From Schmidtea polychroa (taxonomy: Eukaryota): a DNA stretch of 64,000 bases. Position 1 is the stretch's first letter, and each line of letters begins with the position of its first letter. Positions 27,201 to 61,318 of the stretch are shown here, piece by piece. The translations under genes and the position numbers were made by a program. Location of the stretch: contig CM097885.1 of the NCBI GenBank assembly GCA_044892525.1, positions 33,294,001-33,358,000 of the forward strand. Direction: 5' to 3'. The notes beneath the pieces were generated by a model, which saw nothing but the letters and a program-made list of their open reading frames with translations, ran no database searches and was not told the origin of the DNA.

Positions 27201-30200
27201 ATCGAAAAAGTTAATTTACAATTTTTAAATTAATTTTAATTTTAATAAATTTTTTTTAAAGAATTCCAATATATAACGTCACAACAATTCGACAGTTTGA
27301 AATAATAATATTAAATTCAGGGAAAAGTCTAAAAAACTATTACAGGAAAAATCAAATGTCACTCATGTTAATAAAAAGTAAATAACAAATAGTGGGTTAT
27401 CAGAAAACCCACAAATGCCCATCTATCAATCAAAAGAAAAAATAATTAAATCACAGCTAATTAAAACAGACACTGTAATCTGATGTGTTCGCTTAGCAGG
27501 CATCATTATTTTGGTAACTTTGTCGCCAGGTTATATTTATAATTATATAAATTCACAAATACATTGTAAAATGAGCGCAAAACTATGTATTCAATGTAAT
27601 TTACAGAATAAATAAAAACAAANNNNNNNNNNNNNNNNNNNNNNNNNNNNNNNNNNNNNNNNNNNNNNNNNNNNNNNNNNNNNNNNNNNNNNNNNNNNNN
27701 NNNNNNNNNNNNNNNNNNNNNNNNNNNNNNNNNNNNNNNNNNNNNNNNNNNNNNNNNNNNNNNNNNNNNNNNNNNNNNNNNNNNNNNNNNNNNNNNNNNN
27801 NNNNNNNNNNNNNNNNNNNNNNNNNNNNNNNNNNNNNNNNNNNNNNNNNNNNNNNNNNNNNNNNNNNNNNNNNNNNNNNNNNNNNAACAAAGTAATAAAG
27901 AATTTATAAAAAATGTTAAAACTTCTATTAATGCTTTTATATCATTAATAAATACAACTTGATACAACTTTAATATCATGAAAATAATGAAAAACAAGTC
28001 AGTAATTATACATATAATGAGTATAAATTATAATGTCATTTATAAATAACGAGTCTATTTGACGCATTGATAATCTAGGGTGACGGGTGGAATAGATGAT
28101 ATTTGGTAAAAATTTCACAATTTCCATATTTTTCTAAAAAATTTCTCTTTTATTACTAATAAATAGTTCTTTATATCAAAATTTTATCAATCAAATTATC
28201 TGTAAAATAATTTAGACAATATCTGTTATATAAGTTTTAGCGGAATTTGCTTATTGTGAAAACAGAAACCACCTCATAACATAATAGTTGATTTGGATAA
28301 AATAAATTACAGAAAACAAGTAATTTTTATTGCCTGAATAAATTCAGCTAAGTTTATATAATTTGAAAATTATTTAGAAAAAATTTAAATCATTATAAAC
28401 CAAAATATAAAACGTTTTTTCGGCAAAAATAATCATTCTTATCAAATCTAGATGGCTAAGATTTAAAAAAAACCATATGGCACATTGAAAATCATTTCGA
28501 CAATGTTATAAAACTAATTCCCTGAAGACTATTAGAGTTCGTAGAATATTTTGTCAAGAAAATAGAAATATTTGCATAGCCTTTTAAATTTTTTTAATAT
28601 AATAATAAAATTTTTATAATATAATAATCGAAATGTCCCTATTTTGTACAGAATTGTTACCTATATACAAGTAAATTTCGATTTTTCGACACCCCTAAAT
28701 CATCAACGTCAAAAATAAATCAATTACATTCGATGGTTCGACATTCGGTCTTTTCAAATTCAGTTATAATTTTTTGGTTTTCTTCTAATGATCTCGTAGT
28801 TTTCTTCATTTAAGGTAAAATATAAAATTAAGAATTATAAAATATACAAATATAATCGAAAAAAATCAATTTGAAAACTATTATTTTTAAATTATCTTTA
28901 TTTATAAAATATTATAACAAGCCTATTATACAAACCACATGCTAATCTTCATCATGTTGTTACCCCATTTCATGTACTCAGTCTATAATACATGTTACAG
29001 ATGCATGAAATCTTTTCGTTTGCAGTCCATCCTCTTAAAATGTGCATCTCTACTTTTATTATTCATAGCTCGCTCATTTTTTCTGTTTAATATATTTACA
29101 TCTTAATAGTCTCCAGTACAACTATCCCGATGATCAATAATGAAGATATAACGACTGGCAAGTAATCACTAAATATTACAGAAAACCACAAGTACAAGTT
29201 CAAATTTTAAATTATGAAGCGTCTCATTTTTATGGCTCAATAAAATATTATTATTAAAACCGCTCGATTGTTCGTCATCATAGTATTTTATGTGGGCGAA
29301 CGATCGTTCTGTCGAACCATCGAAATTTACTTGTATACAAAATTGACTAATAATTAATTAATAATATTAGAAAATGAGTTTATTACTCAGATTGATATTC
29401 TTTACATTCCCTTGTCAAGAATTTCCTCATTTCAATACAATATTCATGATTATTGTTTCCTACCTATATTTAAATATTTATTAATTAATATGAAAAAATG
29501 CAAGCCAAAATAACTAAATTCAATAATGGAAACTCAGATTTTTAATGTAATAAAATTAAATAGTATATAAAAAGATAAAATAGTGAGATTTAGATAATAT
29601 CTATAATATCTATATGTTACAGTTAAAGTATAAACTTAGAAAATGTATACCTTAACTAGTTAAAGTTGTAAATTCAGTTAAAGTATACATAAGGTGACCA
29701 GACGTCCCGCTTTTGGCGGTACTGTCCCAATTTTTCACGATTTATCCCGCGTCCCTCAACGTTTTTCAAAAGTCCCGACTTTTAGAATTAAGTTAAATTT
29801 AATATTTATGAAAATCATTGTTTTGCATTCTAAAAATCCTACGGACTACTAAGACTAACATATGATACACTTTAAGGAAGCTAATTAAACAAATAAATAT
29901 TATAAATCTGCTACTTACCATAGAAAATTAAGGTAAGTAATTTATTTATATATTTCAATAAAACATAAATTTTCTTAAACTTAGCTTAAAATACTCGTAG
30001 TCCTCAATTTTATATAGATAACAAAAAGTATATCGCTGACCCTAATCTTAAAAGAAATTTTAGAAAGAAATATAAAAATAAAATTTTGCAAATATTTTAA
30101 GTTAATCAAACTAATTTCAATATAAACAACAATAAAATATGTTCATGTAAATTATTTTTAGTGCAAATTAATTCAGCGAAATATTGCAACAAGAAATACT

Positions 30201-33200
30201 AGAATAACATTTAAGTATTTTATTAGAGAATGTATACAATATCTAGTTAATGTATACACTGTCTAAGTTTATACTTTAAATGTAACATACACTACATGCG
30301 TTTCTACTATTGGTCTACAGCAAATGCAGCATTGGAATATATAAAAGTAATGACATAATCTGAGGAGTCGGGCAATCAAAACAATCAATCAAACATGCAT
30401 ACATCCATGCATATTAATTATAAAAGTTAACATAACATAATATAATTAACATGGAAATCAAATATCCCAATACATTTACTTTAAATTTAACATTGATAAA
30501 AATTCATTATATAAAATTGCAACTTTTTTCCTTATTTAAATAGAAAAAGTTATTATATATTGACCTGTATCCTGACAATAAATATACGATGAAAAGGATT
30601 GTTAGAGATATTATCGTAAATTAATGTAAGCTGCAAAACAACTTTAAAATGATAGTCGTTCATCATATAATACGAGTATTTGCATTTATTCCTACAGATA
30701 AAAGTATACAACTTAATTTATTTTATATAATTTAGTCGTTTGATAAAGGTATTCTTAATAAAGGTTAAATTAATATTATAATTACTCTGATATTAAAAAT
30801 AAATTATTAATTTTTAATAAAACAAAAAATAAATTACTTTTCAATTTAATGTTGCAGAGGAATAAAACACCGATTTCACTTCCAATTACAAGATATTCAT
30901 TATCTGTCGGATTTAAACTACCACAAAGTATAGAAACACTTTTTGATAAACTTCCTCTATAACGTATAGATTTCGGTAAATCTCGAGCTGTCAAATTATA
31001 ACTGAAATATAATTAATAAAATTACTAGTTATAGTATAATATTATATATTTCTAAATATAAAAATATGATCAACTGTGAAAGTTTTACATATACGGAATA
31101 AAAGGAATAAATAAATATAAACCAATTATTCGTTATATATAATACGTTGAATTTATTTTATTTTTGAAAAGAATTTAATTATTTAACACAATTTTTCGGC
31201 ATAGCTTTTTACATCCATCGTAAATCGTAAGCTATTGAAAAATCACATTTAATAATTGGTAGAGGGCAATTTGGAAGAATATAATATGCAAAAATCATTG
31301 ATTGTTTGACAAAATAACAAAGATTTATAAATAAAATATGTAAAAATACGAAGTTTTAAAATTTTGAATTGAGAAAACAGAATTTTATGATTTTTTAGCA
31401 AAATATAATTTTAAAAATTAATGAATTAGTTTGTTTGAAAAAGAGCAAATCTAATGATGACAGTGAGTCTGTCGAAATATATTGTAGTTTAATATATATT
31501 GGATTCGCGNNNNNNNNNNNNNNNNNNNNNNNNNNNNNNNNNNNNNNNNNNNNNNNNNNNNNNNNNNNNNNNNNNNNNNNNNNNNNNNNNNNNNNNNNNN
31601 NNNNNNNNNNNNNNNNNNNNNNNNNNNNNNNNNNNNNNNNNNNNNNNNNNNNNNNTATATTAATAAATTCAATATATCTTAAATAATATTTATAAAAACA
31701 AATACTAATACTAACATATGAATCGAAAAGGATCTCAAATATTGTAAAAGAAATGTGAATTGCATACTTTTTTTAATTCAAAAAAGTGAACTTCCATTCA
31801 AAGTCACGAAAAAGTCATGGTACTCTTTGATATTAGAAAATAAATACAAAGTTAAATATTAAATGATTGATTGGCTTCAAAAATTTACAAATTTAATAAT
31901 TGTCTAAAGAAAATATACAAAAGCATGATGCCCATAAATTTAAACCTAATAAAACATCGTATTATATAAAATCTTAAATTTATTTATTCTAAACAATGCT
32001 TCAGTTTATAAATTAATTTAAAATAAATAGATTTTATAATATCAAAATAATTATTTTATTAGTCTTTAAATAAATATAATAGTATCATATGACCAGTTGG
32101 GATCTCAAATTTCAAAAGTAGAAATAACGGAACTTCATTGATAAAAATGTAAATAAACATTCAAAGAAATTATCATTTATTTAAGCTAGATAAATATGAT
32201 GAAAATGCAAAAATAGTTATCTTCAATCAATTATGGAGAAAAATTTAAATCATGTAGCGATTTAATCAAAAGAAAAAAAAGAAAAAAAATATTTATGTTA
32301 ATATAAAAAATATTTGTTATGATAAAAAAATCACTTGTTTGAATAATCAGTTTTTTTTAATTTTTATGCTAAAATACATATATAGTGATTTTGATATTTT
32401 TTAATAATTTATTATGAATTATATTATCAATGATTGGTTCACAGAATATTCCGATGGAAATATGTCTTCTCAAGGAGTATTTTAAATTAGAATAAAAATC
32501 TGGAAAATCTTGGCTTGCATTCCCTTATTAATATTACTTATGGCATTTTTTGTTCAATACCAATTATGTTGGCGATTTATTTCTACCCGATATTAACAGA
32601 AAAATTGGATTTTGGTCTGGAGATGTTTATAAATTACAATGCGATGCAATTGTTGTTCCAATCAATAATTCAGTCGAAGGCGAACTTTCCGTCGAATCTT
32701 CATTAATTTATAAATTTGCTGGAACTAAATATGCGCCTTTAATGCAAAATACCGTTTTTTCTCATGAAGCTGTAACACATTTCACAGATGTTTCAAGTAG
32801 TAATGAACAACAAAAACTAAACCGTATCATTCCGGTTTTCATGCCATTTATTGGATATATTATATCACTAATAATTGGAACTTTAATTGTTGTTCTCATG
32901 TCTATCGTTGGATTTTGCTTCTGTTTATGTCGACGTGGGGAGAAATGTGGTGGTAAAGTTAAAGTTCTATTAGGAATCATTTCTGTTATTATGTTAACTG
33001 GCATTGTTCTAACGTTTATCAAAATAAACTAATCCCTGACACGCTAACAAATCCAAAACTTATGCACCATTCTCTTTCTAATATTTACATTGAAATATCA
33101 AATGCAGAAAAGTTATCCAGAAACAATGATGGCCTGATAAATAAAACTCAGTTTCAAGATATGCTCAGCTGCCAATATTTTAATAATCTAAAAGCGGATT

Positions 33201-36084
33201 CTTTTAATGAAAAGGTCAAACAATGTCCTTCATCAATCAAGAAGGAGCAAACCACAACAAAATGATTTTACCAAAAAAAATTATTCGATTTTACATTTCA
33301 ATTCAATAAAAATAAATATAATAGATTTAATTTCAAACATCATCGATAATAAAATTATAAGAAAATTATTTAAAATTTATTTGAAATATAAATTATATTA
33401 AATTAATTAGGAAATTTGTCTAATCAATAAAAAAATATTTATGAAATTTATAACAAATCTGGAAAAATATTATTTGGCTTTTATAGTGTACGTGGAATGG
33501 TCAAATAAATTCGTGTTAAAACGGTTGCATCATTTATAAAACAATAACTTTCTATTTATTACGAAATACCAATCTCATTCCATGTGATCAGCAGATCTAA
33601 TTTAAAAGTACAGGTAACACCCGTTCACCGCGACCCTGGCGAGTGCGAATTCGTTATAACGCGACCGCAATTTAAAAAAATATTTTTCAGACACGCTTTG
33701 AGAGTGCGATAAATCGTCATAATGAGTGACACATAATGTTCTTGCTCACTTATACGCATTTAAATGTACATAGTAAGTCATGAGAGTGAGTGAGACAAAA
33801 TAACGTCACTACTTTGCTCTTAGTAGATACAATTTACATACATACAGTTGACCTAGTCTTAGTTGTGATAACAAACGCGTCTTAATTAATTAAATTGATT
33901 ACATAATGATTTTTGAGCAATTTGTAATTTTTAAAATGTCAAAAAGATAAAGTGATAAATCGGTTAAGAAAACTCGCAAAGTATTGACCTTGGAAAAGAA
34001 ATTAAAAATTATTGAAATGACAGAAAATGGTGCTAAATGTACAGCTGTAGGAAGTGATTTAAATTTGGCCGAGTCTAAAGTGCGAACAATTGTGGGACAA
34101 AAAGATAAAATTAAAAAGGCTGGTGAGAGTGTTACTCCATTTACAGGGACGAAAGTTTCACGAACCAGAAGTTTTTTGATGACGGAAATGGAGAATTTAT
34201 TAAGCAAATGGATAGAGGATCTGAATCAAAGGCTATTAATACTCAAATCATAATGACTAAATCACTTAGTCTTTGGGATCATTTAAAATCTCAACATGAA
34301 GGAGATAAAATATTTAAAGCAAAGGTTGGTTTGATCGGTTTAGAAAACGATCAAACTTGCATAATCTTAAAATGATTGGTGAATCGGCTAGGGCTGACAT
34401 GGAATCTGCTGAAAAATATCCAATTGAGTTCCGGAAAATTGTGGAAAGGGGAAATTATTCAACAGATTTAATTTTTAATGTGGATGAAACTGGACTTTAT
34501 TGGAAACAAATGCCGTCGAGTACATTGATTTCCATAGATGAGAAGACTGCTTCTGGGTTTAAAGCATCTAAAGACCGTTTGTCTATTAACAATTTGTGGG
34601 TCTAAATATAATTGCGAACAATTTTAAAACCTACGAAATACAAACCAAATTTGGCATAGTTATGTTGTAGAAGAAGGTTCAAACCCGAAAATCACACTAG
34701 ATTTACTTTTTAAATACCTAATATATTTTATGAATTTTATTGTTTTTATTTTGAATTAATAAAAATTCAGTTCATTATTTTATTATGGCTCCACAATATT
34801 GTATTTTGAACTTTTTTATAGTTTTTTCTCTTAGGTTGAAAAAGGTTTCTAGCCATTGGTTTATCTTATGCAAGACTACCTTGACTTTCGATGCCACTGG
34901 AATTGATCAGCTACGTGTTATTGTCAAAAACAAATTCCAGAAAACTTATTAAACAAAGAAAATTTATTAAAGAAAACTTATTAAAAATTCAGACGAAGAT
35001 CTCAGTTTGGTTTGTAATTTATTCATTTGAGAGCACAACAAGAGTTGAGAAATATAGAACGAAAGAACAATTGCGAGATGAAATCAAGCGCAGTATTGAT
35101 GAGAATTTCAACAATTCGCATATCATAGTTTATCAAATAGACTGGAAATGCATGGTTGTTAGATTATCTTGAAAAAGACGAACAGCCGTTAACATCAGAC
35201 AAAGAATCAAGTCTAATTGAAATATGTTAACTGATGAAAGTCCAGTTGGACGACATGCAACTCATCACCATCAACAAATCCCTCACTCGAATACATCTGA
35301 TTCCACTGTATTAGTTTGGTCCAATAAAGAAGCAACGGAAATTTAGAAGGCCGAAACAATATATCAGTAAAATCTATAGCAATCGAGGATTCTATTTAAG
35401 TAATGAGTGTAGTATTAGTTGAAAGAAACATCAGCAGAGGGGTTGACAAATCATTCGCAAGCGTAAAAAGAGAAAATTATCAAACCTGTAGCACAGCAGA
35501 ACACCAATACAAAATAAAATAAAATTGCACTCTCCTTTGAAAACCAAGTAAGTGTTCCATTCCAATTGCACTTAGAAAAAACTAATATCAAAAACTGGGT
35601 TATTATTGAAGTGCATGGCATGGTGGGCTAATATGGATAATTACGTGGATTCATTTGTGAGAAATTATATCGATAGGAAAAGAAAGTTAATATTGAAAGT
35701 GTAAGGCAATCACGGGAGCGGGATGGGAAACCATTTGATCACATCCATTTGTACTGAACATTTATAAAAATTCAAATATTCAGATATATTTTGATGAAAT
35801 AATTCTTGTGTATCTTTTATATTGGAATTTTATTTTATGTAAAAATAATATTCAGAATAAAATTCAGAACTTGGCTGTTTGTCATATGAAATCATTCAAT
35901 ATTAATAATAAAAGTCATAAATACTATTTGACGTGTAGACTTCTAAATATGATTTACAACCAGAAAATTCTGCTGCCATAATTTATAGTTTTTCAACAAA
36001 TTATTTGATGACTTTACTTTTAAGATTTTATTCCGAGAAATAAATATTGAAAAATTAAAAGTAAGTATGAAATAGAATAATAAC

Positions 36085-36163
<79 letters not shown>

Positions 36164-39100
36164 TTAATAATAATTAGAGCTTCCAAAATTACTGTATATC
36201 CGATTAACGGTAATACCGAAATCATTTTCCATCATTACCGATATTTCAGGAAAAAATTTATTGCAGTATTTTTGTTTGAAAAGTTTTTGATATAAATATA
36301 GACCAGCATTTTTCAATTTTTGTTTTCATTGTTCCACCAGCTAAACAAATTAAATGTTTGCTTAGCACTAGCAAAAGTCAGAAAAAAATCAACAAGCTTA
36401 TCTTCAAACAGGATATGTTTAGTATTGAAATGGCGCTGGAGTATAGGTTTCATTGAATGATTGAAAAGTTTTTATTGCAGATGACACATTGGAATGTGGG
36501 TTCATTTTCATCACCACGACCATGTAGATCCAAAGGATAGATACCTATCGTAAGATTCGTTATAGACAAGTTCTTGTTTTATTTTAAGTTTCAACCATTG
36601 ATGCTTTTTGTGTTTTCAAATTATAATAATATATAATGAATTATAATTTATTAAAGTAATGTAGTTTTTGTAATGTAAGTATATAATTTGTATATATTTT
36701 GTTTTCTTTTAAATCCATTTAATACATATAATGACGACCTTTGCGTTTCAAAAGAGCTCACTGATGCTTGCAAGTCTTAATTTGTAACGAGTTTGTTGTT
36801 AGTTGAATTTGCCGTGTTTTTGACAATAATTTTAAGCACCACTCTTAGAAGAATTTTTATTATCAGAACAATCTTTATAGGTTTTACCATTTTAGAATTA
36901 TCAAAACTTCAAATGTATGAAACCTATTATGATATTCTACTACCACATTTTAAAAATAGAATATCAATGCATGCAATGGATACAGATAGTATATTTTTAA
37001 AAATATATACTAAAAACCTAAAAGAGGAAATATCTGAAAATGAAATCCCAAGGAATTTAATAAATTCATCTGGAGAATTATTCACCTTTAAAGATGAAAA
37101 ACCAAATACTCCAATAATTGATGCTGTATTTATTAGAGCCAAACAATATTCACTAGAAATGATTGAAGCCCCAAAGACTGAAACCCATTCAATTAGGATT
37201 GGGGATATAGACTATACATTTGATATACCAGTATTAAAACTTGTAACGTCTAAAGATAATAAAAATAAAGGTATACAGAAAGCAGTTTCTAGAACTATAC
37301 CCCATCAAGACTATAAGGATATTCTAAATAAAAATCAACCAGATAAAATAGTTGAGGTTCATCAACTTAAATCTGAAAAGCATTACATGTATTTAGAAGA
37401 ATCAAATAAAATATCATTATCAAATTATGATGATAAGAGGTATATTTTATCAGATTTAAAAAAGACTTCCAATTGGAAATGATATGATTCCACATATAAA
37501 AAATTTAAAAGTCTTGAATGATTTATATCATACAAACATAACAGACCTTCAACTGTATCAAGTTCAAATACTCTACCCTGAAAGTCATTCTGAAACTCGA
37601 AATATTTTAGACTCTATAACCATATACGTCAAGTATTTAAATACTAATCCATCAGAAGAAGAATTTGAATCTCATAGATTAGAGATTCAAAGATTATCAG
37701 CCATCAATGACTGAAAGTCTCTGAAAGTCATTCTGGAATCTTAAAAATGACTGAAAAATCAATACTTGAAAACTTAAAGTCTTTAACTGACGACAAGATA
37801 CTTTTAATTGATATTATCAAAGTTTTGCATAAATTAAAAAATAAACCATCTGTTTCAATAATAAAAATTTTTTCTTTTATATTTATAACATCTTTTTTAT
37901 TTGCTCTTTTATTTTCTCTTGCTCTACCTTGGTTGAAGTCTTTCTGGCTTTAATCTCTTTAGATATTTTCATCAACTGAACCTCAAGATCATTTATAATC
38001 CAAAGTAATACAGGCTCTCGAATAGCAAGTTGCGCAGCTTGCAGGGCTTTATCCTCTGAAGATTTCTCATTATATTCTTTTAATGCAAGACTTGATTCCT
38101 TTTTAATAATAGGATTGCTTTTTATCAAGTTTAAAACACGTTCATTCATTTATTAAAGTTTTTATTTTCTTCTCTCCATTTGCTAAATAACAAGGTCTGG
38201 GGTCCGGAAGTCAAAGGCTGTTGATCTAAAATATCTTCAACATCTTCAGTCGTAGAGACTTCTATCCCGGAGGCTAAAGGATCTTTCTTTTGCCTTTTAT
38301 ATTTCTTAGACTTGATGCAGTTATGATTTTGTTGAAGTACATTAGTTGAACAATCATTACAATAAACACCCTTTTTCTCTATAGCCTTCTTTCTCTTACC
38401 TGTATGCCTATAGGGAGAATCAATTCCTAAATCTTTTCTAATTCTTCTCATCGTCGAGTCTGAAGTACCAATCATTTTACAAATTTGAGTCTGAGAAAAA
38501 GTAGGGTTTTCACTCTTTAATCTTGCAAATTCAAAGACTTTCTCTTTTTGTTGAATCTTGTTTAATTATTGAAAGCTGTTCAATTTTTTTTATAAAGCCA
38601 TCCATTTTTATAGTTGAGGAAATAAAGCAAAATAATATTCTCCTTTTCCAATTTGGTCTTGTATACTTAAAGATTGAAATTTAGTTATTTTATTTAAATA
38701 ATCAGGGTCATTAATTCTTACAAGATAAAAGATGTAACACTTTTCACATATTCTAATTTTATCCTCAAGTGATAAACTTCTAAAATCATTCAACCTAGAT
38801 TTCATTATTTCTTCCATTTTTTAAATTAAAAATTATACAGTCTTACGAAGTCTTACGTCGAAGTCTTACGTCGAAGTCTTACGAAGTAACAATTTCTCTC
38901 GGTATTGTTTTTTATCTTCTTTAACCTTTGTGGTTTTCAACTTTATAACTTCATTTTTAATATCTTGAATTATTTGATTTGATTTCATTATTTCTTCATC
39001 TGTTAGGATTCCATCTTCCAAGGCTTTTAATTGAAATAAAAATAATTTTGATATCCCCAAGTCTATTGTCAAACAAGCTTCACGATATAAACTTTTCTTT

Positions 39101-42100
39101 TTTGAAGTATAAGATAAAGAAAATATTTCAGTCAAGAAAGAATCTGCAACAGAAATACTTCCAAGTATTACGGGTGCAAGAGTAACAACTGGTAAAGTTA
39201 TAGGTAAAACAATTGTAAGTATTGCAGATGTAAATCCTAAGGAGTAACCTATAATCTTTAAAGCTGTATTCCCTTTATTCCATCTATTTTTAATTTTTTT
39301 ATAATGCTTTAGTAAGTCATTTAAATGTAAAGTTTCTGATTTAAATTCTTTCACTCTCATGACTTCAAGTTCTGTAGGAGCTGATGGTTCTGGACTTTGT
39401 ATCTTTGGATAGATGGTTTCCATTTTAATAATTAAAAAATTAAGACTTTATTATCTGGTACCAACGCTCGCATATTATAAGAAGTTCGTGTTGTGAGAAT
39501 GTCTTTATACAATTCTACCAACGCTTTACGAACTTGATCAACATCAACCTTTTTTTCATAAAATATTAAATCTATATAACTTACAAGTGTGCTTTTAAAA
39601 ATAATATTCTTACTTTTAACTTTGTGTTTTTTGTGAATCAGTATTATCATGCCAATGTCCATGTGGTAAATCATAACCAGTTATTATAACTTCACCCTTT
39701 TCAAACATACTATTATAATCACATTTTACAAACCATTTCATTGTTTCACCATCATCAGTAAATAAAAAGAAATAAGGATCAATAATCTTTACAACCATAA
39801 AACAAGACCATTCTTTACTATTTGTTGTTATTAAACTTGGTTCTATAAAATGTTTATATCTATTGGGTAATAATGTATTATTCTGTTCTAATTCAGCAGC
39901 TCTTTTTCTAATAGTGTGTGTTGTGTTAATGTGTGTTGTATGAGATTCTAATTTGACAAGTCTTACATTAAATGATGCAATCATCTCATTTATTATATTA
40001 TATATTGTATTAATTTTATTATCCATAAGTTTTTTATGCATAAGTCTTTTATTTTTTTAAAATTGGTATTGTATCAGTTAACCTTTGAGTTTCTTTGGCT
40101 ATCTTTAAGGCTTCTTCATTTAATCGTTGTTCGATATTATTAAGCTTGGATCCTGTAGAATTAAATCTTTCATCTACATATTTTTTATTAGTTGCATCAA
40201 AACCATCAATCGGAGGAGATAATTCTTTTATCTTGTGTCCGTTTAAAAATAAATCACCCTTCATTGAATCTCCTTTTTCGTTTACAAATCTTTTTTCTGT
40301 AAGGTTTATAACATCTTCATCTTTTAATCCATCATTATATAATCCTAATTTATTATAATTCATTTTTATAGTCTAAACTTGTTTCAAATGTAAACACATT
40401 GAAATCTTTTCTCCATTAAAATTAATTAATTCTCCATTTTCATCAACAATTTTAAAATGAATATCCATTAGGTTTTTTCTACATAAAGGTAAATAGTTTG
40501 GAGGATTCATTCTTTCAACCATTTTATACCCAACTCTGACAACATTAGAAGGAAAGGAATATAAAATATTTGCATGTTTACCATTATTATACGAACCCGT
40601 TATACAATCACATAATTAAATATATTATGTAAGCCATTATAGCGGAGTGGGAATAGGCTTCAATTTTATCACCGGGAGTACCGGGTTCAATTTTCGATTT
40701 TGGTCAATTTTTTTCGATATTTTTTTTCAACGGAATCTGATTCAGCGTACTGATTTTAGAATATATTTAAATTTTCAGATCGATCTGAGTGGTAGTTGTC
40801 GAGAAAATGAATAATTAATTTCATCAATAAATAGTCACGCATTAACAACTTATTTTATATTGAGTATAGCTCTAATAGCTTTAAGGTAATAGCACTCGAC
40901 TGCATTGCCAATATCAATGGGTTCAAATCCCATTTCGGTTAATTTTTTTTCAAATTTTTTTTAACGAAATATTGATCAGCATACTCGATTTAGTACTTGT
41001 ACAAATTTTTAAGGTGATTGGTCAACGGCAACTCTTGGAAATTTAAGATCAAAAACGTTTTAACTTAAGCTACCAATGTACATTAGATAATTTAAAATAT
41101 TTTTATACTATTAATATAGCAAATTGCGCCGCTTGCTAGTTTTTAATATTTAATATTTTTATGTTTTACAAGTAGTGGACGTATGGCCTTCACGGCGTAA
41201 ACCTGGTATCCTCGGTTCCTGCCAGGGGGATTAAGGATTTGGCTTGGTAAATTAGGGGTTTTTATGAATAAAAGATGTAAAAATAAAGGGTTAAAAAGAT
41301 GGAAATGTTTAATTTTTAAGCTGGATGGCTAGGATGGGGTGGTGCCGTGAAGGCCATACGTCCACTACTGACATCAAAGGTGCAGCCATTATACCTTACA
41401 GTTAATAAATTGTGTAAAATGTAAGAGGACTATATCATCAATGATACATCAAACATACAAAGTCTGGCATCTTATTTTCGAATGGATTGTCTCCTCCTCG
41501 GAAGAATTTAACATTTCAACCTTTTTAAATAGCTTTCATGTTTGTTTCGGTGAAGATGACGATGTTTTTTGAAACTGAAGAAAATGAAATGGAAATTAAC
41601 GAGTCTGGTTCAAACATTGCTGACGCCTCTGAACTTGTCGATTTACTAGAAAATGTCATTGTTACTGATAATGAAATTTGTGATGATTATAAAGCGATGT
41701 TAAGAAAAGTCAAGGTAAATAAAGAAGTGTATCTTCAAATTAAACAGTGTTTTAATCGAATAAGCTGCACATCGTATTAGCTGCATCGCAAAAATGTTGC
41801 TTTTAGCACGTATAAGTTGCAGCTTATACTTGGGATTTTACAGTAATAACTAAAATAATAAAAACTAAAAGTCAAAAGTCAAATGATAGGAAAATTAATA
41901 AATTATCTTGTCCTTTCATTAGTTAAAATTGAAAGAAAGTCTTTGCCAAATGAAAGCACTGTTTACAAAATTTTCTTAGATCTTTGATTCAATTATACTA
42001 CAATAATTATTTGGTATTTACATTCAGTGTCTGCAATTGAAACGATTTTTTCCGTTTTAAAAATAACTTCATCAGATAAGCCATTCTTTGAGAGAAAATA

Positions 42101-45100
42101 TTTTCTTGTCTATTAATTTAACATCATTTTATTTATTTCAAATTGTAAACGAAGTACTAATCAATTTGTTTTTAAAATATCTGTTTTGATTTTCAATTAA
42201 ACTTCATTAATTATCTCGCATTTTGTGGGAAAACAACGTATTTTTGTCCACTAGGTCGCACGATTACATGTCCCATATCTTCAGAACTGTTTGTCAAATT
42301 TTACTAAGTTCATTTCACATTATTTACTATCATACCGTGTTTTGCTTCAGAAATAAATACCGGAATATATACAGCAATCTTAATACAAAAGATAAGTAGG
42401 TTGATGGAAAACTGAAAGTTCAAGTAGGATTTTCCTTGAAATAAAATGCAGAATTTTACTGGTAAGTAGAACAACTGAAGAACAAATTTTGATGATTTCT
42501 ATAATTGATGTATTGTCTTATTTTTTTGTCTTTTCGTTTAATTTTTATGGAATAGATCAGTAATGAGGATTAGCAGTCCCTTCGGGTCGTTGACAAATGT
42601 TTAAGGGTATATATTAAAAATGGACGTTAGGCGACGAAGGAACAAATTATCTTCAATAAAATCTCCTAAAAATATTTTGACTAAGATTAAATATTTTTTC
42701 TACTTAATATATTTAAAGTAAGGTTGTTAAACGAAAATCGAAAAGTCTATTTTCTGGTTTGAAAATGGTAATCAATTTACCAAAAACCGATATTAACAAT
42801 TCTAAGTAGAAAGTAAACAATTTGGTATTGACACTGTTTTACGTGTTCGCATTATATTATAATATGTTTCTATGAAATACATTAAGAATCGATAATAGGT
42901 TTAAAGTCGAATTAATTATTAACAACCCAGATTAATTTAAAAATGTAAAAAATTTCCATTTTAATGGAAAAAACTACTACATGTGTCAATATTTATGAAT
43001 TTCAAAATTATCATACCCTTTTTCACAGAAAATCTTCCATAGAAATCAAATGTTAATTGGAAATTTTAGTTGGACAACGAGTTATTTTAACACTCAAGTA
43101 CTTTGGCTGCACCGCAGCGGCTATTTTAAATTTAAACATAATAGAATGCATTTATTGTAAATGGATTTAATTTTTTTTCTTAGGTGAAGAAATATAAAAG
43201 TTCTTTTTTCATGTTCTTTTTATCTGCATTGAACTTATACTATCGCAGCTGCGGCGAAAGGAAAGTGTTGGTGTGACAAATTTTATTTAAGTATTAAAGG
43301 GTTAAGATCAAGGAAATTTTTGTGTCTGATTTTTGTGTTTTATTTTTTTAATTTAAATTGTGATCAAATCTACGGAAATTTGTTATAAAGTAAAAGCTCA
43401 TTATTGGATAAAAAATTCAAAAATGGTGTTATTTTATTAAAATAATATTAATAAGAAAAACTTCAAGTAATTTATTTTCAAAAAAATGCATTTTTATAAT
43501 AATATTTGGTATAATTTTTGTATAATATAGAATCTATATTATAGATTTTAACAACTGTTGTTCATTCTGTTGGACCTTAAGGCACAAAATGTTGGGATAT
43601 TTTTTATCCGGCTTTTAAAAAGTGTTCAAATAAAATTAGTTTTTCGATGAAATGTCGATTACTGATATGTTACAGTATGAAAGAAACACCTATTATAATG
43701 AAAGGCGAGTAATCTTGCTTCCTTTTATATACGTATGCTAGGAAGCAAATATCCTGTTTTCGCATAACATAAATCAATTTTAAACATAAAATTTTTCTTA
43801 CGAAAATCCGTGTTCAAAAACGGATGTTAGTCGCAAAAAGGTTATGTATCACCAAAATAGATGAACAGGTAACATGTTAATAAATAAATTCGTAAATTAT
43901 TGATACATGACATTAATTTTAAATAAAAACTTTAAAATTTAGTTTCAATATTTTTGTAAACCTCAGAAATTGTCTCTCTTCTATTTTCTTCTCAGAATAA
44001 TGGACATATTATATATAGATAAAATAAATTTTGAGGTACTGCAAATCATTATAATCTTACAAATGGAAGTAAAATACTATCAATAATTGAACCATACAAT
44101 AAAAACTGAAATTATGAAAAAAGATAATAAGAAGAAGCAATTATAAACAAAATAAGTGTAAAAGTGATTTTGTCGTATGACTTACCGTATTTTAGCGCAT
44201 ATAACGCGCACGTTATACGCATTTTTACAAACCGTGCACCCCCCATGCGCGGTATCTGTGGGTGCGCGCTTTATGATTTATATTTTACACGTGGCGGCAT
44301 TGCCAGTGGAAATATTTTTATGATGTGACAGTAACCCTACCATCGGTTTTATTGTTTATTGTAATCAGATACCGTGCGCGTTATATGCGCTAAAATACGG
44401 TACAAAAAATTAAACAGCATAAGCTTTGTGATACCCAGTGCAAGTCTCAATAGTAGAATAGTTTCAAAATTTTGGCTCTCATCAGCATTATGCAGAAGAC
44501 GTGAATAAAGAGTGAAATTATATGAAAGAAAACTAGAATTAAAATTTCTGTTAGCTATTAATAAAGGTGAGTTTTTGTAATTTTTTGAAATAAAGGTTTT
44601 CTGAAATTTTTCGACTTTCGGTTTCTATTCTGAATTGCTGTTACTGAACATTGTTTTGGTTTCTGGAATTTTGATATTGAAAAATAAATCCTTTTCTGAG
44701 TTTTTTCTTAATTTAATTATGAATCAAATTGAAGTTAGTGAACATGTTCAAGGGTTTAACTCAAAGAATGGATACGGGGATTCATTAGTGTTGACAATAA
44801 AAGTAATGATAAAGAAGTTCTTGTTCATTTTAAATCGATTGCTGCTACAAATGAAACTTCAAATCATGAATCAAGAAATGTTACTGATCCAGATGGAGGC
44901 GATATTGATGATAATATTTAGTCTATGAAAGGTAATTAAACTTTGAAATACACGTTTGTAACACGGCATTGAAACAAATTTGGATGATATGAAAAGTATC
45001 AGACGCTTTACAATGAAAAGGAAATTGCGCCGCTGAATCTCAAAGCTGACAAAAGATCCATGAATCAAATTATTTTGGAGACATTTAATGCACCAATGAT

Positions 45101-48100
45101 GTATTGTTAAAAATCAAACAGTTCTTTTTTGTACGAATCAGGTCATACCTCGGGTATCGTTCTGGACTCTACTGACCTTGAATCTCGCACTATGGCAATT
45201 TATGAAAGTTATGGAAAACCTTCAAAGGATGCCTCGATGATGGCAACTAAACATATCCCAAGAATTAACTATTGCAATTATATCGGGAAACTCAGAACTC
45301 CAGAAGGAGTATAATTCAAGCCAAGTTCCTCGTCTTGTAAAGATTGACATAAGGCATTTTCCATAAACTTCAAACTCTGTTTCACGCATCTTGCTTTTGA
45401 CTGTGGCTGTTTTCACCCTTGCAATAAGCTCATCGACTTCCTTGAAATTCATTTTTATCTTTAGAACGCAATTGTACAATGTTATCAAGAGAAAGAAGGC
45501 GAAAAAACTTGGGATAAAAATTCTTTAGCATTTTAACAGCTGAAATCATGTAGGCAGCAGCTTTTTATATCAAGAGCAGATTTTGATTTCGATTTGCTAC
45601 AATATTTCTGATAGTTTCATTTATGAGCTGAGATATAATAGGATCATTTAGAGAACTTACGATTGGTACAGTCAAGCAAATAAGTTTATGGAGAGTCAGC
45701 TAACAGTCCTGCCAATATGTTTACACATTTCATACCATTTATATCAGACTCGCCTACCACAAGGAAAATGTTTTTGTCTCTGAGGATTGATTGTACTTTC
45801 TCTAACTTATTTCAGCAAAATATTTTCTCAATGAATGATGATATGGTTTATAAAGTGGAATATTTGCAGCGATAAAAGCTTTAGTAACTTTGGTTGAAAT
45901 TCTCAAGTGGTTGCTGATTATAAATAAGTGTTGCTGCTCTTTTGTGATTTAAATTGTTTCTGTGATTATTTGCAGAAAATTTGCGCTCACAAGAGACATT
46001 AGTTCGGCCATATATACACCAGAAAGTTAATAAAAATTGAAATCATGAACTGTGTCGGGTGCTAAACATAAGTGGCAGATTTTGTTCCTTCGCTTAGCTA
46101 TGCCTTTGACATGCTTTAGATAAAAATGGAATTCATATTAAAATTTAAAATTACTGAGTAAGAAATCAAATTTAAACAAAATCAATAATGAAATCGAAAC
46201 AAAGATAAATTGAAAAGAAATCAGTGGTGAAAATTGAGAAAAGTTGTTATAAAAATAAGAATTGTTTAAATCAAAACAAAGAAAATGCTAAACTTAATGT
46301 AATGTTTGACTTTTTTCCTTTTAAAAATAATCTTAAAGGAGAAAGATCATTGACAAAAGAGAAACTTCATGAACTTAGTGTAAAAAAATTAACTTAGTAG
46401 TAAATTATTAACTTTTAGCTAAAGTTGCATTTATGAACTTTTCTGTTGAAAGTTGCAAAGTTGCAATTAAAAATATCAATAAATAGACATCTTATTGAAT
46501 AAAAAGCTTTTAAATAAATGTAGGTTGCCAAAAGTTGCAATGATTACTAAAGATTGTTTTCTCTTATACACCGACGAGCAATTAATAGGACTTTTTCTGA
46601 CATTTAATAGCACTCTATCAATTGATTTAAGGCTTTTTAATGTAAATTTTTTAATGAAAATCAATTGATTTTTTTAATTAAATTTTAAAAATACTGAAAT
46701 TATGCATAAAAAATGTAAGAAAATTTATCTTACATATTTCGATGGCTTGCTCTATATGAAATAGTTTAGTGGTTCCTAATGTGGTGGTTGTGGACCGAAA
46801 TCGGTCCGCCGATTACTGATCACTGGTCTGTGGAAGAGTCAAAATTTAATTTTAATTATCAACTTTTTTTTAAATGGGTAAATTATTTGAATGTTGCTTA
46901 ATGAAAATTGATTAAAAATTACTTAAGATCAACCCTCTCACAAGAGCGATTATCTAATCCGTCAATTATATCTATTGAACTGATATAGTGCAATAAATAG
47001 ATTTTAATGATTTAATTTATGATTTTGCAAGGAAAAAAGCAAGAAAAACACAATTTAAATAAATTTATGATGTTTAGGGACAAAAACAATTGAAAGAATA
47101 ATGATTTTGTGTTTATTTATTAAGACTGGTACCAAACTTTAAAAATGAAAGAACAGGAGCTTCAGAACTATCGTATATGCATGGTAAGTTTATTTTATAT
47201 TAAAGGGACGCCCAATTTCAAAATTTTGCGCAGGGCCATCAAAAATTCATAATAGTGATAAAATTATTTATAATTCTTCACAAAATTATGTGAAAATTGA
47301 TAATAATTATTATAAAATTACCAACCAATTTAATGGAACAAGTGTAGATTTTCTCATTGAAAGATTCCACATGACGATTGTACCATCATTCCCCATGGAC
47401 ACTAAACAGTAATTCGATGAGATCGTTTTTCCAGAAACATTTGACCACAATATTGAATTTATAGGTTCTTCGTGCACCTTATTTTCACTACTACTTGCTA
47501 AAATTAAATCATTTTCTGTTCTTGACCTATCCCAAACTATGATTTCTCCTAAAAATATCACGTTAACAGCACTTCAATTAAACTAGTTTAAATAGATATG
47601 TTTGTAAAAAATTATTGGCAGTTTAAAAAAATGTAAATTTATAAGATTTAAAAGTGGGCATTTTAATAATACTTAAATAAACACGGTAAAGATTTTATTA
47701 ATAAAATTCGCCATTCGTACATCTTTATCACTATATATTTCGCTAGCATCATCACTATCATTGTTTCAAAATCGTGCAAAGTACGTAGTATGTTTGCTAG
47801 TAAATCTCAAACGCCGGTTGGATTGTGTTCGGATTTCGTTTATCAATTCACATGTAATGGGTGTAATGCCACATACATTGGAGAGACTTCCCGTCATCTC
47901 TACTCGAGTTCAAGAACACTGTCGACCGAAGGGAGTGTCCAATATTAAGGATCATAATAAAGTCTGTATGAGAAAATTAGGAATGTCTGATTTTAAAATT
48001 TTATCAAAAAATTTTGATAATTGCTTTGAGCGTGTGATATGTGAAGCATTTTTAATCCTAAAATCAATGTGCAGAATGCTGTAAATGCGTGTGTGTTGAA

Positions 48101-51966: not shown

Positions 51967-52468
51967 TTGAAAATATTGGAGTCCTTAGCAATAAATATTT
52001 AAACACTTTAAAATTAATGATTAGTTAATAATAAATATTTATTGAATAAATAAAAATTCACACTTCACAAACATTATGCTTCTATAAAAATCATTCAATA
52101 AAATTAAAATAAGTATATGTTTAAAAATAATTAATGATAAAATAAAATTAATGATATTTAAATTTGAAACTTATTACTAAAGAACTTAACTTAATTTTCA
52201 ACAAAATATTTTATCCTTCTCACTATAAATCAATTATTTTCAAGTTTCTAAAGAAAACAGTCATGAAAACTGGAGTGAAATCAAAAATGATTTTGTGGTT
52301 AAAAATAATGAAAAAAATAGGAATTCTTTCTTTATCTATTAAAAATTTTAAAAGTTTTATTGCTAAACTTTAATTTAAACTTTAATTATATAAATACAAC
52401 ACGTTACATTATAATTAATCACAAACGCAGCTACGTCATAACCAAGTGTCACAAAGATGAATAAATGA

Positions 52469-52909
52469 TTATTCGGGAGTGAAATTAGTTTGCTTGTCAT
52501 TTGACACGTTTGTCAGCAGTGCCTGTCGTAGTTTTGCCCGAGCGGATTTACTGGGTCGATTCCTCCTTTTGGCCTTGGGAGGTGGCTCCACGTTACTGCC
52601 CCTTGCCACCAACTTCGCCATTGGCTTGATCTTGGAGGCTACATCCTGATCTAGGGTTTTCTGATGGAGTTGAGTCTCCATCTGGCGCATCTAGAGGCGG
52701 AGGGCTCGGATCTCCGTCTGATCTTGAGCGCTTTGAATTTGTAGTTGTTGAATCAACTTGAGGCGCTTCTGCATTTCGGCGGGACTGAACCAGGTGCCTT
52801 CCAGTTCTTGGCACCGTCCCTTGAACTTATTGACCCTTGCTTGTAATCCTTCGGACTGTCTTTGGGCCTCTTCTCGTTCGTGCCGCAGGTTTACGAATAG
52901 TTTGAACAC
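52469..52909 (-). pseudogene. GC-rich coiled-coil/basic ORF of unknown origin, one in-frame TAG at 52691
   Basis: ORFs 52691-52909 and 52469-52690 are one frame split by a single TAG; GC content is clearly above the flanks. Confidence 0.5.
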
Positions 52910-53082
52910 TAAATCAATAACGATGCGATAAACAGGTTCTTTCTATGAAATGAATAATACTGATTTAGATCTCTATTTGATATGATAACAGTCGAAAACA
53001 CTGATAGTCAATCGTGTGCGTCTCGACGGCGCAATAATAGCTTTATCACGGATCCGGCAGGACCTTCCGGGGTCAGCCTCGT

Positions 53083-53102
53083 TTTCTAGAATGTTCTGGA
53101 AA
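53083..53102. promoter_or_regulatory. Perfect four-unit heat-shock element
   Basis: tTTCtaGAAtgTTCtgGAAa = four alternating nGAAn pentamers. Confidence 0.55.
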
Positions 53103-54346
53103 TGCCAAATCCATCATGGAGGCAAAGGTAACAAAAAAAAATTAAAAAATTAAAATTAAAATTATGGCACTAAAATTGCCATTAAAATCACTTAAAATGC
53201 AAAATAGAACGTTTTAGAATTAAAAAGAATTCGAGTTTGTTTTACTGCATCAACGCACACACACGTATTTGCACACCAAAAAATAGATATATATATACCG
53301 CCACATTTCAGTCACATAAAAAGCTTAATCATCATTTTATGCCAAAAATTTTCTTTGTTGATATTGAAATCTAATTCGAATCCTAATAGTAAGAAATTTT
53401 TTTGTATTATTTGTTATTATACTTCATTATGCCAAAATGATTTTATTCGGTATTTTATTTTTAATTTTGCTTATAAGCAAAAGTGATCAACGTTTTTGTA
53501 GACATATTTTTGATCGCGACGTTGACCAGCCATGCTTCCAACTTTGATAAAATTCCATGCACAATGATTATGGGTCTACGACTCCAGATTCACTGAAATG
53601 AATTTTTAACTGCTAGAGGTTGCCACTAACAAATAGTGTTTACCCAGGAGTAGGGCGGATAAATCCATCACACGGACTATGCGGACGAAGTAATTTACGG
53701 GAAACTAAATTGGGATACATACTACAATAGGGCCTGTCGTACCCTATTCAGTGTAGTCGGAAAAGTGGGTAAATTTTAATTAATTTGACCTTTCATTAAA
53801 TCACATATGTAATATGAACATTCAACTATATTATAGAAAACACAACACTAAGAAAATCTGAACGAGAAATGTCCCAGACTCAAATTTCTACAATACACTC
53901 TGGCAGCTGGTTAATTCAGGAAATCCTTCAAACTTTTAATACGTCTAATATCAAATATTTTAAAGTGGTTTTAATTAAACTTATTCATATTCTATAATTA
54001 TTGATATTTAGAAAGCGTAAACTTAGTCAAAATCTAATAAAGCCCGAATCATTGTTTGATTCTCGGATTATTCATTTTTAGGGTATGCCAAAGGTATTAG
54101 GTTCTTTTACTAATTCTACACTTTTAGAAGTATTTGAATAAGCCCTACATTACGATGTAATGTCATGAAAATTAATATTAGAAATCCCTACTTCCATTTG
54201 AAAGCTGAAATCTTTAAAGACCAAAAATTAAACCATAATTTTATTATACGTGGTTAGCTCTATTCTTACCTCTATTCAAAAATCTAATACCATTATACTT
54301 TAAGATCACATCTCACTATAATAATAAAGGAATGATTAATTTTAGA

Positions 54347-54870
54347 TCGGTATTATCTAAAATATACTACCCTTATATTTACCTCTTGATGTCTATATTA
54401 TTTGGGCTAATATATATTAATCTCAAGTCTGTATTAGCAAAATGTACGACCTATATTTTTTTATATTAATGTCTATAATATTTGGTTAAGAAATTTAAAC
54501 TTTTAATCTGTATTATCTAACATCTACGATACTTATTTTTACATCTTAATGTCCATATTACGTGGTTAATAGAAAATAATTTTAAATCGGTATTATCTAA
54601 GATATGCGATCTGTATTTTTACATATTAATACCTATATGGTTTGGTTAATTAATATTAAATTTTAAGTCTGTATCGTCTAAAATATACGAGCTTTACATC
54701 TCCATATTAATGTCTATATTATTTGGTTAAGAAATATTAATCTTACATCTGTATTATATAAAATATACGATCGTTAGTTACGTATTAACGTCTATATTAA
54801 TTAATAAGTATTAATTTTTAAATCTGTACTACCTAAAATATACGCTCTCTATATTTACATATTAGTTATG
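54347..54870. repeat. ~80-bp tandem minisatellite, about 7 diverged units
   Basis: TC(T/G)GTATTATCTAAAATATACGA-like motif recurs at 54347, 54428, 54507, 54587, 54668, 54748 and 54823. Confidence 0.9.
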
Positions 54871-56404: not shown

Positions 56405-58150
<1,746 letters not shown>

Positions 58151-59783: not shown

Positions 59784-59995
59784 TGAGTTTTCTCAAAATT
59801 ATGACACCCCCTATTTTCTGCAACTTCGCGCCAATGGCAATTACCCTATTGGCCAGCCCTGCACAGAATATCGCAAAAATTAATTTCCCCCTTAGAATAA
59901 AAAATTCGAAATATCTACGTGGTTAAATTTAATTAATAAATTGAACAAATGAGTGAACTAAATTCATGAATTTGATCATCTTATATTTATATCTA

Positions 59996-60223
59996 TTCCC
60001 TCTGTCCAAAAATGATAGTCCAGTTGCATTTTAGCCTCCCCCAAAACCCTAACCTAAAAAAAATAAATTTTGTTTTATTGAAAATCTATGGCTAAAAGTT
60101 AATATCAATCTATTTTCGATGATACTGAATAAGATTATACAATCTGTTTTAAGTAATTTTGAGTGGTTGCAAAGAATTTACGATTTAAAGTCAAACTGGA
60201 CTATCATTTTTGGACAGAGGGAG
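59996..60223. mobile_element. Stowaway-like (Tc1/mariner) MITE
   Basis: TA-(C/T)TCCCTCTGTCCAAAAATGATAGTCCAGTT inverted repeat with TA TSD. Confidence 0.88.
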
Positions 60224-60580
60224 TATTAAATAATTATAATGCCATCACCACCCCACTTCAAAAAATTATGACTGTATCTAAAATATGTTTTATAGTCATC
60301 TTGCTTTGTTACCTAGCAACAACTATTAAACTGGTTTTATTGAAAACATATTTGTTTATCTAGTAAACAATTACATATTTATGGCATTACAAAATTATAT
60401 AAAAGTTTATATCAAACTTATGTAATTGAAAAAGTATTCGATATCAATAATAATGTTGGAAACCACTGACTTAGACAAAACTAAATAATAAATGATATAT
60501 GGCAAAAGGAAAAGACAGATTTCATACTATTTCACTAACAATTTATAACAGAATCAATTTCTAATAACAAAAAATGATTA

Positions 60581-61318
60581 CTAAGTTTTAATTTTATTAG
60601 GTAAAATCGACGGACAAGCTATAAATCGATCATAAAGCACTGCTCCCATAAGATATATTAAAAATGAACTCATCATATACTGGATAACTAAAGATTTTTC
60701 ATGTGATTCTTTGTCTCTTTCTTGTCTATAATCTTGCACTTTTTTTGCTGACCAAGCATAGGATGTAAATTCTGTGTAAGCATTTTTATCAATAACTTCA
60801 TCCGTTTTGTAAACATGGTATTTATACTTTAGTTCTTCATCAAAAAGCTTAGAAGTAGGCTTGTACAAATTTTTGTCATAATTTCGTCTTAATTCAAAAT
60901 TTCCAAGTATTTCATATGCTTTTGCTACTTTATGAAATATTTTTTGCGCAGCTGGATCATGAGATACATCGGGATGATACAGTTTAGATTTTGCATAGAA
61001 TGAATGTTTTATTTCTTTATGAGTTGCTGTTGGTAGAACTCCTAAGATTGAATACAAATTGGTTTCCTTAAGGATATCACTTGAATAGAATTTAGGAACT
61101 GTACCGGAAAACTTTAAGCGCAAAGAATTATTAAGGATTTTCACTTTTAAGTTATTCTAAAATTATACACTTGGTAATATTAAAAATAAGTGAAACGAAA
61201 AACTTAACAATTTTACTAAATAAACATTTTTAAACCAAATTTTAAAGCACTTGTGTTATCAAATATAATTTAGATTATTAATTAACTGTTAAATTACTAA
61301 AAATAATGATTTAGACAT
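60581..61318 (-). CDS. DNAJC30: Mitochondrial-type J-domain protein, DNAJC30-like
   Basis: J domain LYSILGV..EIK..YHPD..AYEILGN..LRRNYD with a C-terminal TM segment. Main exon 60581-61156 has an AG acceptor; probable first exon 61298-61318 (MSKSLFL, GTAATT donor, 141-nt intron) gives a basic presequence. The first exon and the paralog identity are tentative. Confidence 0.75.

Follow-up and report, generated by a model that had tools for sequence, protein, structure and literature searches.

This report concerns a 64,000-nucleotide stretch of the genome of Schmidtea polychroa (NCBI GenBank assembly GCA_044892525.1, contig CM097885.1, positions 33,294,001 to 33,358,000 of the forward strand), which is referred to as the window and in which all coordinates below are counted. 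Within it lies a compact block of about 3.7 kb (36868-40615) that is best read as the non-autonomous, dead relic of a Polinton, also called Maverick or adintovirus (class Polintoviricetes). Its simplest history, to which we assign a probability of roughly 70%, is the normal integration of a Polinton followed by the loss of both arms. The block is real but ordinary: a decayed fragment in which most of the genes that had looked new belong to types familiar from Polintons or are parts of a single broken gene.

A first reading made from the letters alone (the sequence-only reading) had recognised here a block of 3.8 kb with virus-like compaction, and the compaction was borne out. Stretches of at least 70 codons free of stops covered 97.4% of the block, whereas the median of 54 segments of equal size elsewhere was 28% and the highest value 66%, and in 200 first-order Markov resamplings the coverage of the block did not exceed 34%. 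Its G+C content of 27% was the same as that of the surroundings. Spacing between the genes was 8-9 nt, or they overlapped (by ATGA). The 3' end of a DNA polymerase B gene (PolB) on the plus strand converges on the 3' end of a run of virion genes on the minus strand, comprising a penton gene, a fibre-like gene, a SLATT-like gene and small open reading frames (ORFs).

In agreement with the sequence-only reading, the plus-strand gene (36868-37482) encodes the C-terminal ~200 amino acids (aa) of a protein-primed PolB, with 15 matches among 855 candidates. The best of these, P0001 (1441 aa) and P0002 (1341 aa), were 47-48% identical. About five-sixths of the gene are missing, since the alignment sets in only at residue ~1239 of 1441. 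The stretch 37460-37714 is the C-terminal tail of the same protein out of frame: residues 1294-1335 of P0002 align in the next frame, with the frame break near 37450-37470. P0001 and P0003 contain the family PF03175, and the only match of the family profile in the PDB was the phi29 polymerase (E=0.031). P0001 was without a match in the phage collection. The features of a protein-primed PolB of Polintoviricetes were found, on the C-terminal ~200 residues only. P0001-P0003 also carry N-terminal C2H2 fingers and, by eye, an endonuclease-VII-like insertion of the kind that Pfam detects in the PolB of the element L038 described below. A PolB profile together with tblastn recovered no piece of PolB from the window outside 36868-37714.

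When a genome collection was scanned with the PolB alignment, 57 loci were found. They carry the labels of bacterial or archaeal bins but, judging by their gene content, are evidently mis-binned eukaryotic elements. An integrase, ATPase, protease or major capsid gene was found in 25 of the 57 (jackhmmer with queries from L038, which is itself counted), and many of the remainder were short contigs. At E<=0.05 the penton profile matched nine of the loci and the two-transmembrane (2-TM) profile three. Two near-complete Polintons, L038 (CALODI010000002.1, 60-13087) and its near-duplicate L029 (CALNXW010000008.1, 234-13261), lie on contigs labelled as metagenome-assembled genomes. They possess genes for a SLATT protein, a fibre-repeat protein, pX, an adenain protease, an A32 ATPase, a penton, a double-jelly-roll capsid protein, a PLA2, an rve integrase with a chromodomain and a PolB with an endonuclease VII insertion. 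Because 25 loci with the same type of PolB carry core genes, and L038 holds all of them together, a shared Polinton ancestry is favoured for the block. In a tree computed by a quick method from 182 columns of the shared region (56 rows, 17 of the 57 loci left out, no outgroup and no named Alpha or Beta references), the PolB of the window and P0001-P0003 formed a four-member clade on a long branch (SH-aLRT 99), nested inside the wider PolB family.

L038 and L029 deserve a remark of their own. L038 runs on into microsatellite-rich DNA. Though most of their genes are nearly identical, the two elements have clearly different PolB genes (L038:9194-13087 and L029:9281-13261) that stand far apart in the tree; they differ in the ATPase and in the C-terminus of the fibre as well. 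The polymerase difference is an apparent swap, like that described for nematode Polintons in PMC10748475.

At the opposite end of the block, 40373-40615 on the minus strand encodes the C-terminal third of a penton, a minor capsid protein with a single jelly roll, whose 5' end is cut mid-gene. The 80-aa peptide (40376-40615) had 499 relatives at E<=0.001, and it aligned to the last third of proteins of 230-260 aa. The best relative among the matches listed, P0019, was 62% identical over residues 158-237 of 237. It is this full-length protein that was modelled, from an alignment of 89 roughly full-length sequences among the 150 matches listed; the predicted local distance difference test (pLDDT) score was 95. 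With the model as query, Foldseek placed the penton of mavirus first (E=2.6e-10), followed by those of adenovirus and Sputnik. VIA-align gave Z 13.5 against the mavirus penton (root mean square deviation 6.2, 218 residues aligned), a score that two PBCV-1 chains and Sputnik equalled, and at most 7 for unrelated folds. The best sequence match of the family profile in the PDB was also a penton (E=0.0033). The fragment is thus the last third of a member of the penton family, predicted to adopt the fold of P0019, and the penton piece named by the sequence-only reading stands. Neither of the outcomes that this reading had set as refuting it was obtained. No other piece of a penton was found in the window.

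Between the penton and the remaining virion genes, one fibre-like gene (39432-40363, minus strand) is distributed over three frames, with a repeat of the phage-tail-fibre type, a coiled coil and a C-terminal domain. P0169 (317 aa) and P0170 (336 aa) each span the three ORFs 40049-40372, 39616-40056 and 39432-39680, at 49%, 78% and 68-77% identity, respectively, so that the breaks fall near 40035-40070 and 39625-39635. These two were among the three proteins that a search with 40052-40363 retrieved among 94 candidates. The N-terminal repeat matched PHROG families of phage tail fibres (E=1e-4), and the gene matched the fibre ORF of L038 (E=3e-5). An AlphaFold model of P0170 from a two-row alignment reached a pLDDT of only 36. 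The name fibre is one we infer from these sequence matches. Compared with the intact relatives, the block contained three frame breaks, two in the fibre-like gene and one in PolB. Its inventory of ORFs had consequently been over-counted: the fibre-like and SLATT-like genes belong on the list of accessory ORFs, but three entries were parts of one broken gene and a further one (37460-37714) was the PolB tail. The case shows how frame breaks swell counts of accessory ORFs.

The next gene (38866-39423, minus strand) is intact and encodes a membrane protein of 185 aa with one continuous hydrophobic stretch of ~45 residues, the length of a hairpin. Three relatives were found among 119 candidates (77%, 75% and 39% identity). 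The relatives matched SLATT_1 at E 0.02-0.05, while the ORF of the window itself gave no match. A profile of the family reached ORFs of L038 and L029 at E 0.001-0.004, and those ORFs are clear SLATT proteins (E 3e-7 and 4e-8). The hhalign probability for the family against SLATT was just 21%, and one relative fell into unnamed Atlas clusters at 0.91-0.93. Taken together, these matches weakly suggest a SLATT-like protein. Because intact relatives of the block genes exist at 75-78% identity, the same family must be present elsewhere. It might be thought that the host had co-opted this membrane gene and that the block was kept for its sake, since it is the sole longer gene of the block without a break, its start context is intact and it lies on the strand of the host gene. 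Three breaks per 3.7 kb would, however, often leave a gene of 560 nt unbroken by chance, and its identity to other copies of the family (75-77%) is like that of its broken neighbour. Co-option therefore seems extremely improbable.

The remainder of the block is made up of small ORFs, four of which had no convincing match. In Pfam, NCBIfam and PHROGs no ORF of the block scored above the curated cut-off. A plus-strand ORF of 80 aa with one hydrophobic stretch (37711-37953), whose status as a gene is uncertain, an 88-aa ORF on the minus strand (37883-38149) and an ORF of ~69 aa on the same strand (38608-38817) found no convincing counterpart in these databases or in the loci. The ORFs of 88, 69 and 68 aa could be given no assignment. 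The start of the 88-aa ORF overlaps the stop of a minus-strand ORF (38146-38605) for a putative helix-turn-helix (HTH) protein with a CxxC motif. All matches of the latter were weak (Pfam E 0.013-0.18; PHROG E 0.002; Atlas leads 0.82-0.86, that is, below 0.9). Its first in-frame methionine lies inside the HTH, and a start at 38605 with the motif described below is in another frame; judging by this start context, the ORF probably has a break close to its 5' end. Among the 7,329 ORFs of the 57 loci, the HTH, 88-aa and 80-aa ORFs and the middle and C-terminal pieces of the fibre-like gene had no match at E<=0.5, and a 49-aa ORF, a 70-aa ORF and the PolB tail had matches at E 0.1-0.25 only. The absence of homologues for the four small ORFs is weak evidence, since it comes from limited searches that did not extend to the large protein databases. 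The proposal that the accessory ORFs may define an undescribed lineage has largely fallen away, as fibre and SLATT types are already labelled on adintovirus maps and occur in L038. The long-branch PolB subclade and the four unmatched ORFs are what is left of it.

No separate repeat protein, as had been listed among the ORFs of the block, could be found; what the tandem-repeat search detected was repetition in the DNA. One repeat has a unit of 13 bp (38846-38883, between two genes; 2.9 copies, 100% matches) and the other a unit of 15 bp (40011-40052). Every unit of the 13-bp repeat contains TAAG on the minus strand. TAAG is the core of baculovirus late promoters.

The history of the block has to be read from its ends and flanks. 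Both ends are cut mid-gene, as had been observed before, the PolB starting at residue ~1239 of 1441 and the penton at residue 158 of 237. Terminal inverted repeats (TIRs) were likewise absent from the 25 longest inverted pairs in 35700-42500. No target site duplication (TSD) beyond chance was detected at the junctions, where shared 5-6-mers were at chance level; 48% of random pairs of segments share a 6-mer, and microhomology therefore gave a signal neither way. No part of the block was found to recur elsewhere in the window. When 20 core-gene queries from six loci were compared with the window at E<=0.05, only the penton and the fibre were found, and no major capsid protein, ATPase, protease or integrase. 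Thus neither the genes of a complete autonomous Polinton (double-jelly-roll capsid, packaging ATPase, adenain protease, rve integrase) nor its ends (TIRs of 100-1500 bp, TSD of 5-8 bp) were found. These missing genes forbid the label of a complete element but tell nothing about the parent, because both arms are gone. The sequence-only reading had concluded that an internal slice, and not a normal product of the integrase, lies here. This describes the present state correctly, but trimming after a normal integration fits equally well.

One alternative is that the insertion never comprised more than this slice: a broken, extrachromosomal piece of Polinton DNA would have been captured, without integrase, during the repair of a double-strand break. 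The two mid-gene ends would follow naturally, and no TIR, TSD or other piece of the element was found in the window. On the other hand, relatives with this type of PolB commonly carry an integrase of their own, and the apparently truncated transposon in the left flank agrees with a local deletion; the microhomology at the junctions favours neither side. Capture of a slice is unlikely. The left flank (36180-36780, minus strand) is tentatively the 5' region of a decayed transposase, which we take to be hAT-like. It gave two short collinear matches to a remnant at ~56600-57800, with E=0.002 in a comparison of two sequences and no support from Pfam. A candidate for an inverted N-terminal piece of PolB with a zinc finger in this flank was ruled out by the PolB searches, and the finger better fits a hAT-like remnant.

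The right flank (40620-41139, plus strand) is a repeat-like segment of ~520 nt, tentatively Helitron- or SINE-like (SINE, short interspersed nuclear element). It contains an internal duplication of 75 nt and a tRNA-like stretch (40869-40941; Rfam 25.6 bits, E=0.14, under the gathering score) in which ARAGORN found no tRNA. The slice could have been carried in by a different transposon, such as a Helitron-like element with its 3' end CTAG at ~41139. No more than a few bases separate the penton cut from the start of the repeat-like segment, whose last letters are CTAG, with a T after them, and the intron that surrounds the block also holds a chimeric fragment containing prominin, of a type that such elements leave. 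But the terminal hairpin was not significant (z -0.37), no Helitron 5' end was identified in the right flank or upstream of the slice, the flank is single-copy in the window, and the name Helitron, which would imply a 5' TC, a 3' hairpin plus CTAG, an A-T target and multiple copies, is a putative one given for the end motifs. We consider this origin rather improbable. Beyond the right flank lies an element resembling a miniature inverted-repeat transposable element (MITE; 41171-41369) with perfect terminal inverted repeats of 26 nt; small inverted-repeat elements akin to it were seen at 44183-44402, 59994-60225 and 29613-30289.

Several observations weigh against the integration of a complete Polinton followed by the loss of its arms. 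No remnant of either arm was present anywhere in the 64-kb window, and because of this the window leaves trimming in place unproven. The assignment of the flanks to transposons is weak, and the order of genes in L038 differs from that in the block. Frame changes, but not a single nonsense codon, occur in the aligned parts of the block. Each of the three breaks lies near an A/T run of at least six, a condition that 12% of the block meets. Slippage or assembly error could each explain the position of the breaks, and some of them could be errors of the assembly. A more extreme form of this view holds that the assembly produced the entire block by collapsing or mis-joining part of a multi-copy Polinton family, and that sequencing errors caused the breaks. 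The window is indeed a gapped scaffold with five N runs, all three breaks are near homopolymers and the aligned parts lack nonsense codons. Yet distances of 5 kb and 23 kb separate the block from the nearest N runs, and there is no gap at the junctions; moreover, slippage in AT runs is a normal mutation in decaying DNA, which also counts against an artefact. It is therefore very improbable. Although the window alone does not decide among these origins, integration and subsequent loss of both arms is the simplest account.

In detail, this history would have run as follows. A full element with integrase, major capsid protein, ATPase, protease and TIRs would have integrated into the germ line at this site, and both arms would then have been lost through deletions that probably had to do with the transposon remains to the left and right. 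What remains can neither replicate nor integrate nor form particles, and it is removed together with the intron in which it lies. In the parent element, PolB would have copied a linear genome from a protein primer and the penton would have capped the vertices of the particle; the fibre-like protein probably formed a spike on the vertex, and the SLATT-like protein may have been a membrane effector.

The start codons of the block share a common context. All five starts on the minus strand of the block read T-A3-6-TG, compared with 10 of the 86 other ATGs on this strand, and two of the five are identical over 12 nt (38603-38614 and 40361-40372). In L038 and L029 the pattern was found at 10 of 13 starts each, versus 12 of 295 and 17 of 304 other ATGs, and the starts were often preceded by a TTAAA-rich stretch 20-30 nt upstream. 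The sequence ACTATAAAAATG, with one mismatch allowed, was not enriched across the window (5 occurrences, 2.98 expected). In weighing these counts it should be borne in mind that the pattern was defined after the starts had been inspected, that L038 and L029 are near-duplicates and that most other loci lacked the motif by eye. AT-rich animals usually have an A-rich Kozak context, and T-A3-6-TG could equally well be no more than such a context. The motif is also similar to the initiator TAAAT, which intermediate and late genes of vaccinia use, as do yeast linear elements (PMC6211774, PMC5294985). A search of the literature, subscription papers not covered, found nothing on a TAAAT or late-promoter motif in animal Polintons. 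It is conceivable, if improbable, that the parent belonged to an unnamed, fast-evolving lineage of animal Polintons whose tightly packed genes had TAAAT initiators of the poxvirus late type, overlapping their start codons, and were read by a co-infecting large DNA virus. If this were true, the parent would have been a virophage of animals, equipped with a fibre and with a membrane effector of the SLATT type, read by a polymerase other than host RNA polymerase II. According to bioRxiv 10.64898/2026.06.19.733378, no virion of an animal Polinton has been observed. A start context common to the block and a distant complete Polinton bears on the open question of which polymerase transcribes these elements.

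The block lies within an intron of a host gene with a presumed ciliary function, as the sequence-only reading had proposed. The intron (31002-47325, minus strand; 16,324 nt, GT-AG) belongs to a WDR34/DYNC2I2-like gene. Four minus-strand exons (47548-47326, 31001-30838, 23979-23828 and 21036 onwards) with GT-AG introns join to one stop-free frame of 278 aa. The upstream exon (47326-47548) encodes a WD40 blade corresponding to residues 237-299 of WDR34 in 6rlb_D; the ORF around it (47313-47573, minus strand) had as its best PDB match WDR34, the dynein-2 intermediate chain 2, with E=7.4e-7 against 0.001 for the next family. The downstream exon (30838-31001) is in frame after splicing and had by itself no match in the PDB. 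In PDB searches one of five candidate exons retrieved WDR34 and the other four did not, the last giving weak matches to the WD40 repeats of RACK1. We take the remaining exons to be WDR34 from their splicing and their motifs. Both the best match and a collinear series of WD40 exons were thus found. The prominin-containing fragment mentioned above occupies 32532-33032 of the same intron on the opposite strand (plus). It is a chimeric, intronless piece of host genes with an ORF of 166 aa, the second half of which matches Prominin (E=1.7e-8); the first half is presumably the start of a macro-domain protein (GDAP2-like), without a match in Pfam.

Further features of the window lie outside the block. 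Remains of transposases were seen at 8548-10850 and 33951-34605 (plus strand) and at 13729-15194 and 56585-57805 (minus strand). Pfam identified among them a hAT-like one with DUF4371 (E=1e-19) and one of the Tigger/CENP-B type (E=1e-8); the other two we assume to be transposases as well. A DnaJ-domain gene, apparently with a single exon (60581-61156, minus strand; E=8.6e-19), is flanked by two direct repeats of ~270 nt that are 95% identical, at 59481 and 61798. An 80-bp tandem array (54335-54864) has 6.7 copies with 72% matches. A GC-rich island (52461-53150; ~50% versus 26% in the window) with short ORFs lies just upstream of the first WDR34-like exons, and a short, degenerate actin-like fragment (Pfam E=0.062) occupies 15705-15905 on the plus strand.

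The elements to which the block has to be compared are known by three synonyms, Maverick, Polinton and adintovirus, according to bioRxiv 10.64898/2026.06.19.733378, and are classified in Polintoviricetes, order Amphintovirales (NCBI taxonomy). As described in PMC10748475, Polintons measure 13-25 kb and have TIRs, TSDs, a protein-primed PolB (pPolB), an integrase and virion genes; the survey reported there comprises 20,702 integrase-linked pPolB1 copies in 960 genomes, with 748 copies in flatworms, in 8 of 73 genomes. The PX protein is the Polinton penton (PMC4028283). A protein-primed PolB, a single-jelly-roll penton and a compact run of genes are common to these elements and the block, which differs in its size of 3.7 kb, in its broken genes and in that no integrase, capsid, ATPase, protease, TIR or TSD was found. 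Degraded adintovirus copies occur widely in the germ lines of animals (PMC8502044), and such elements are targets of PIWI-interacting RNAs in flatworms (PMC8532177). Since Polinton relics are common in animal genomes, the block alone is of little consequence. It does mark a Polinton family in this host, and public data contain close intact relatives of that family that are open to annotation.

The pentons of the mavirus virophage and of adenoviruses share the fold of the penton family of the block at an identity of 8-15%, but a common fold shows neither family nor dependence on a helper. The adintovirus maps in PMC8502044 (text of Supplementary Fig. S2) label both Fiber and SLATT, the latter beside the rows of Hydra and Stylophora. 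Alpha- and Beta-adintoviruses (group 2 and group 1) are told apart by the class of their PolB and by hallmark accessory genes, PLA2X for Alpha and GasderminX/Cupiennin for Beta, and these genes lie outside the slice. L038, a distant relative, combines PLA2 and SLATT as on the maps of the Alpha panel. The closest sequences, with intact frames and 36-78% identity, were P0001-P0003 for PolB, P0016 and P0017 for the SLATT-like protein, P0169 and P0170 for the fibre-like protein and P0019 for the penton. L038 and L029 are not close to the block in the PolB tree, gave no match to its HTH, 88-aa and fibre C-terminal parts, and carry PolB in the same direction as the virion genes, whereas the two converge in the block. 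They resemble it in PolB (30% identity), in the penton (26%), in the fibre repeat and, weakly, in the SLATT-like gene. In both cases the fibre and SLATT genes are adjacent, and the start context T-A3-6-TG is common to both. A single complete element, L038, thus contains counterparts of all four genes that could be identified in the block, though in another order.

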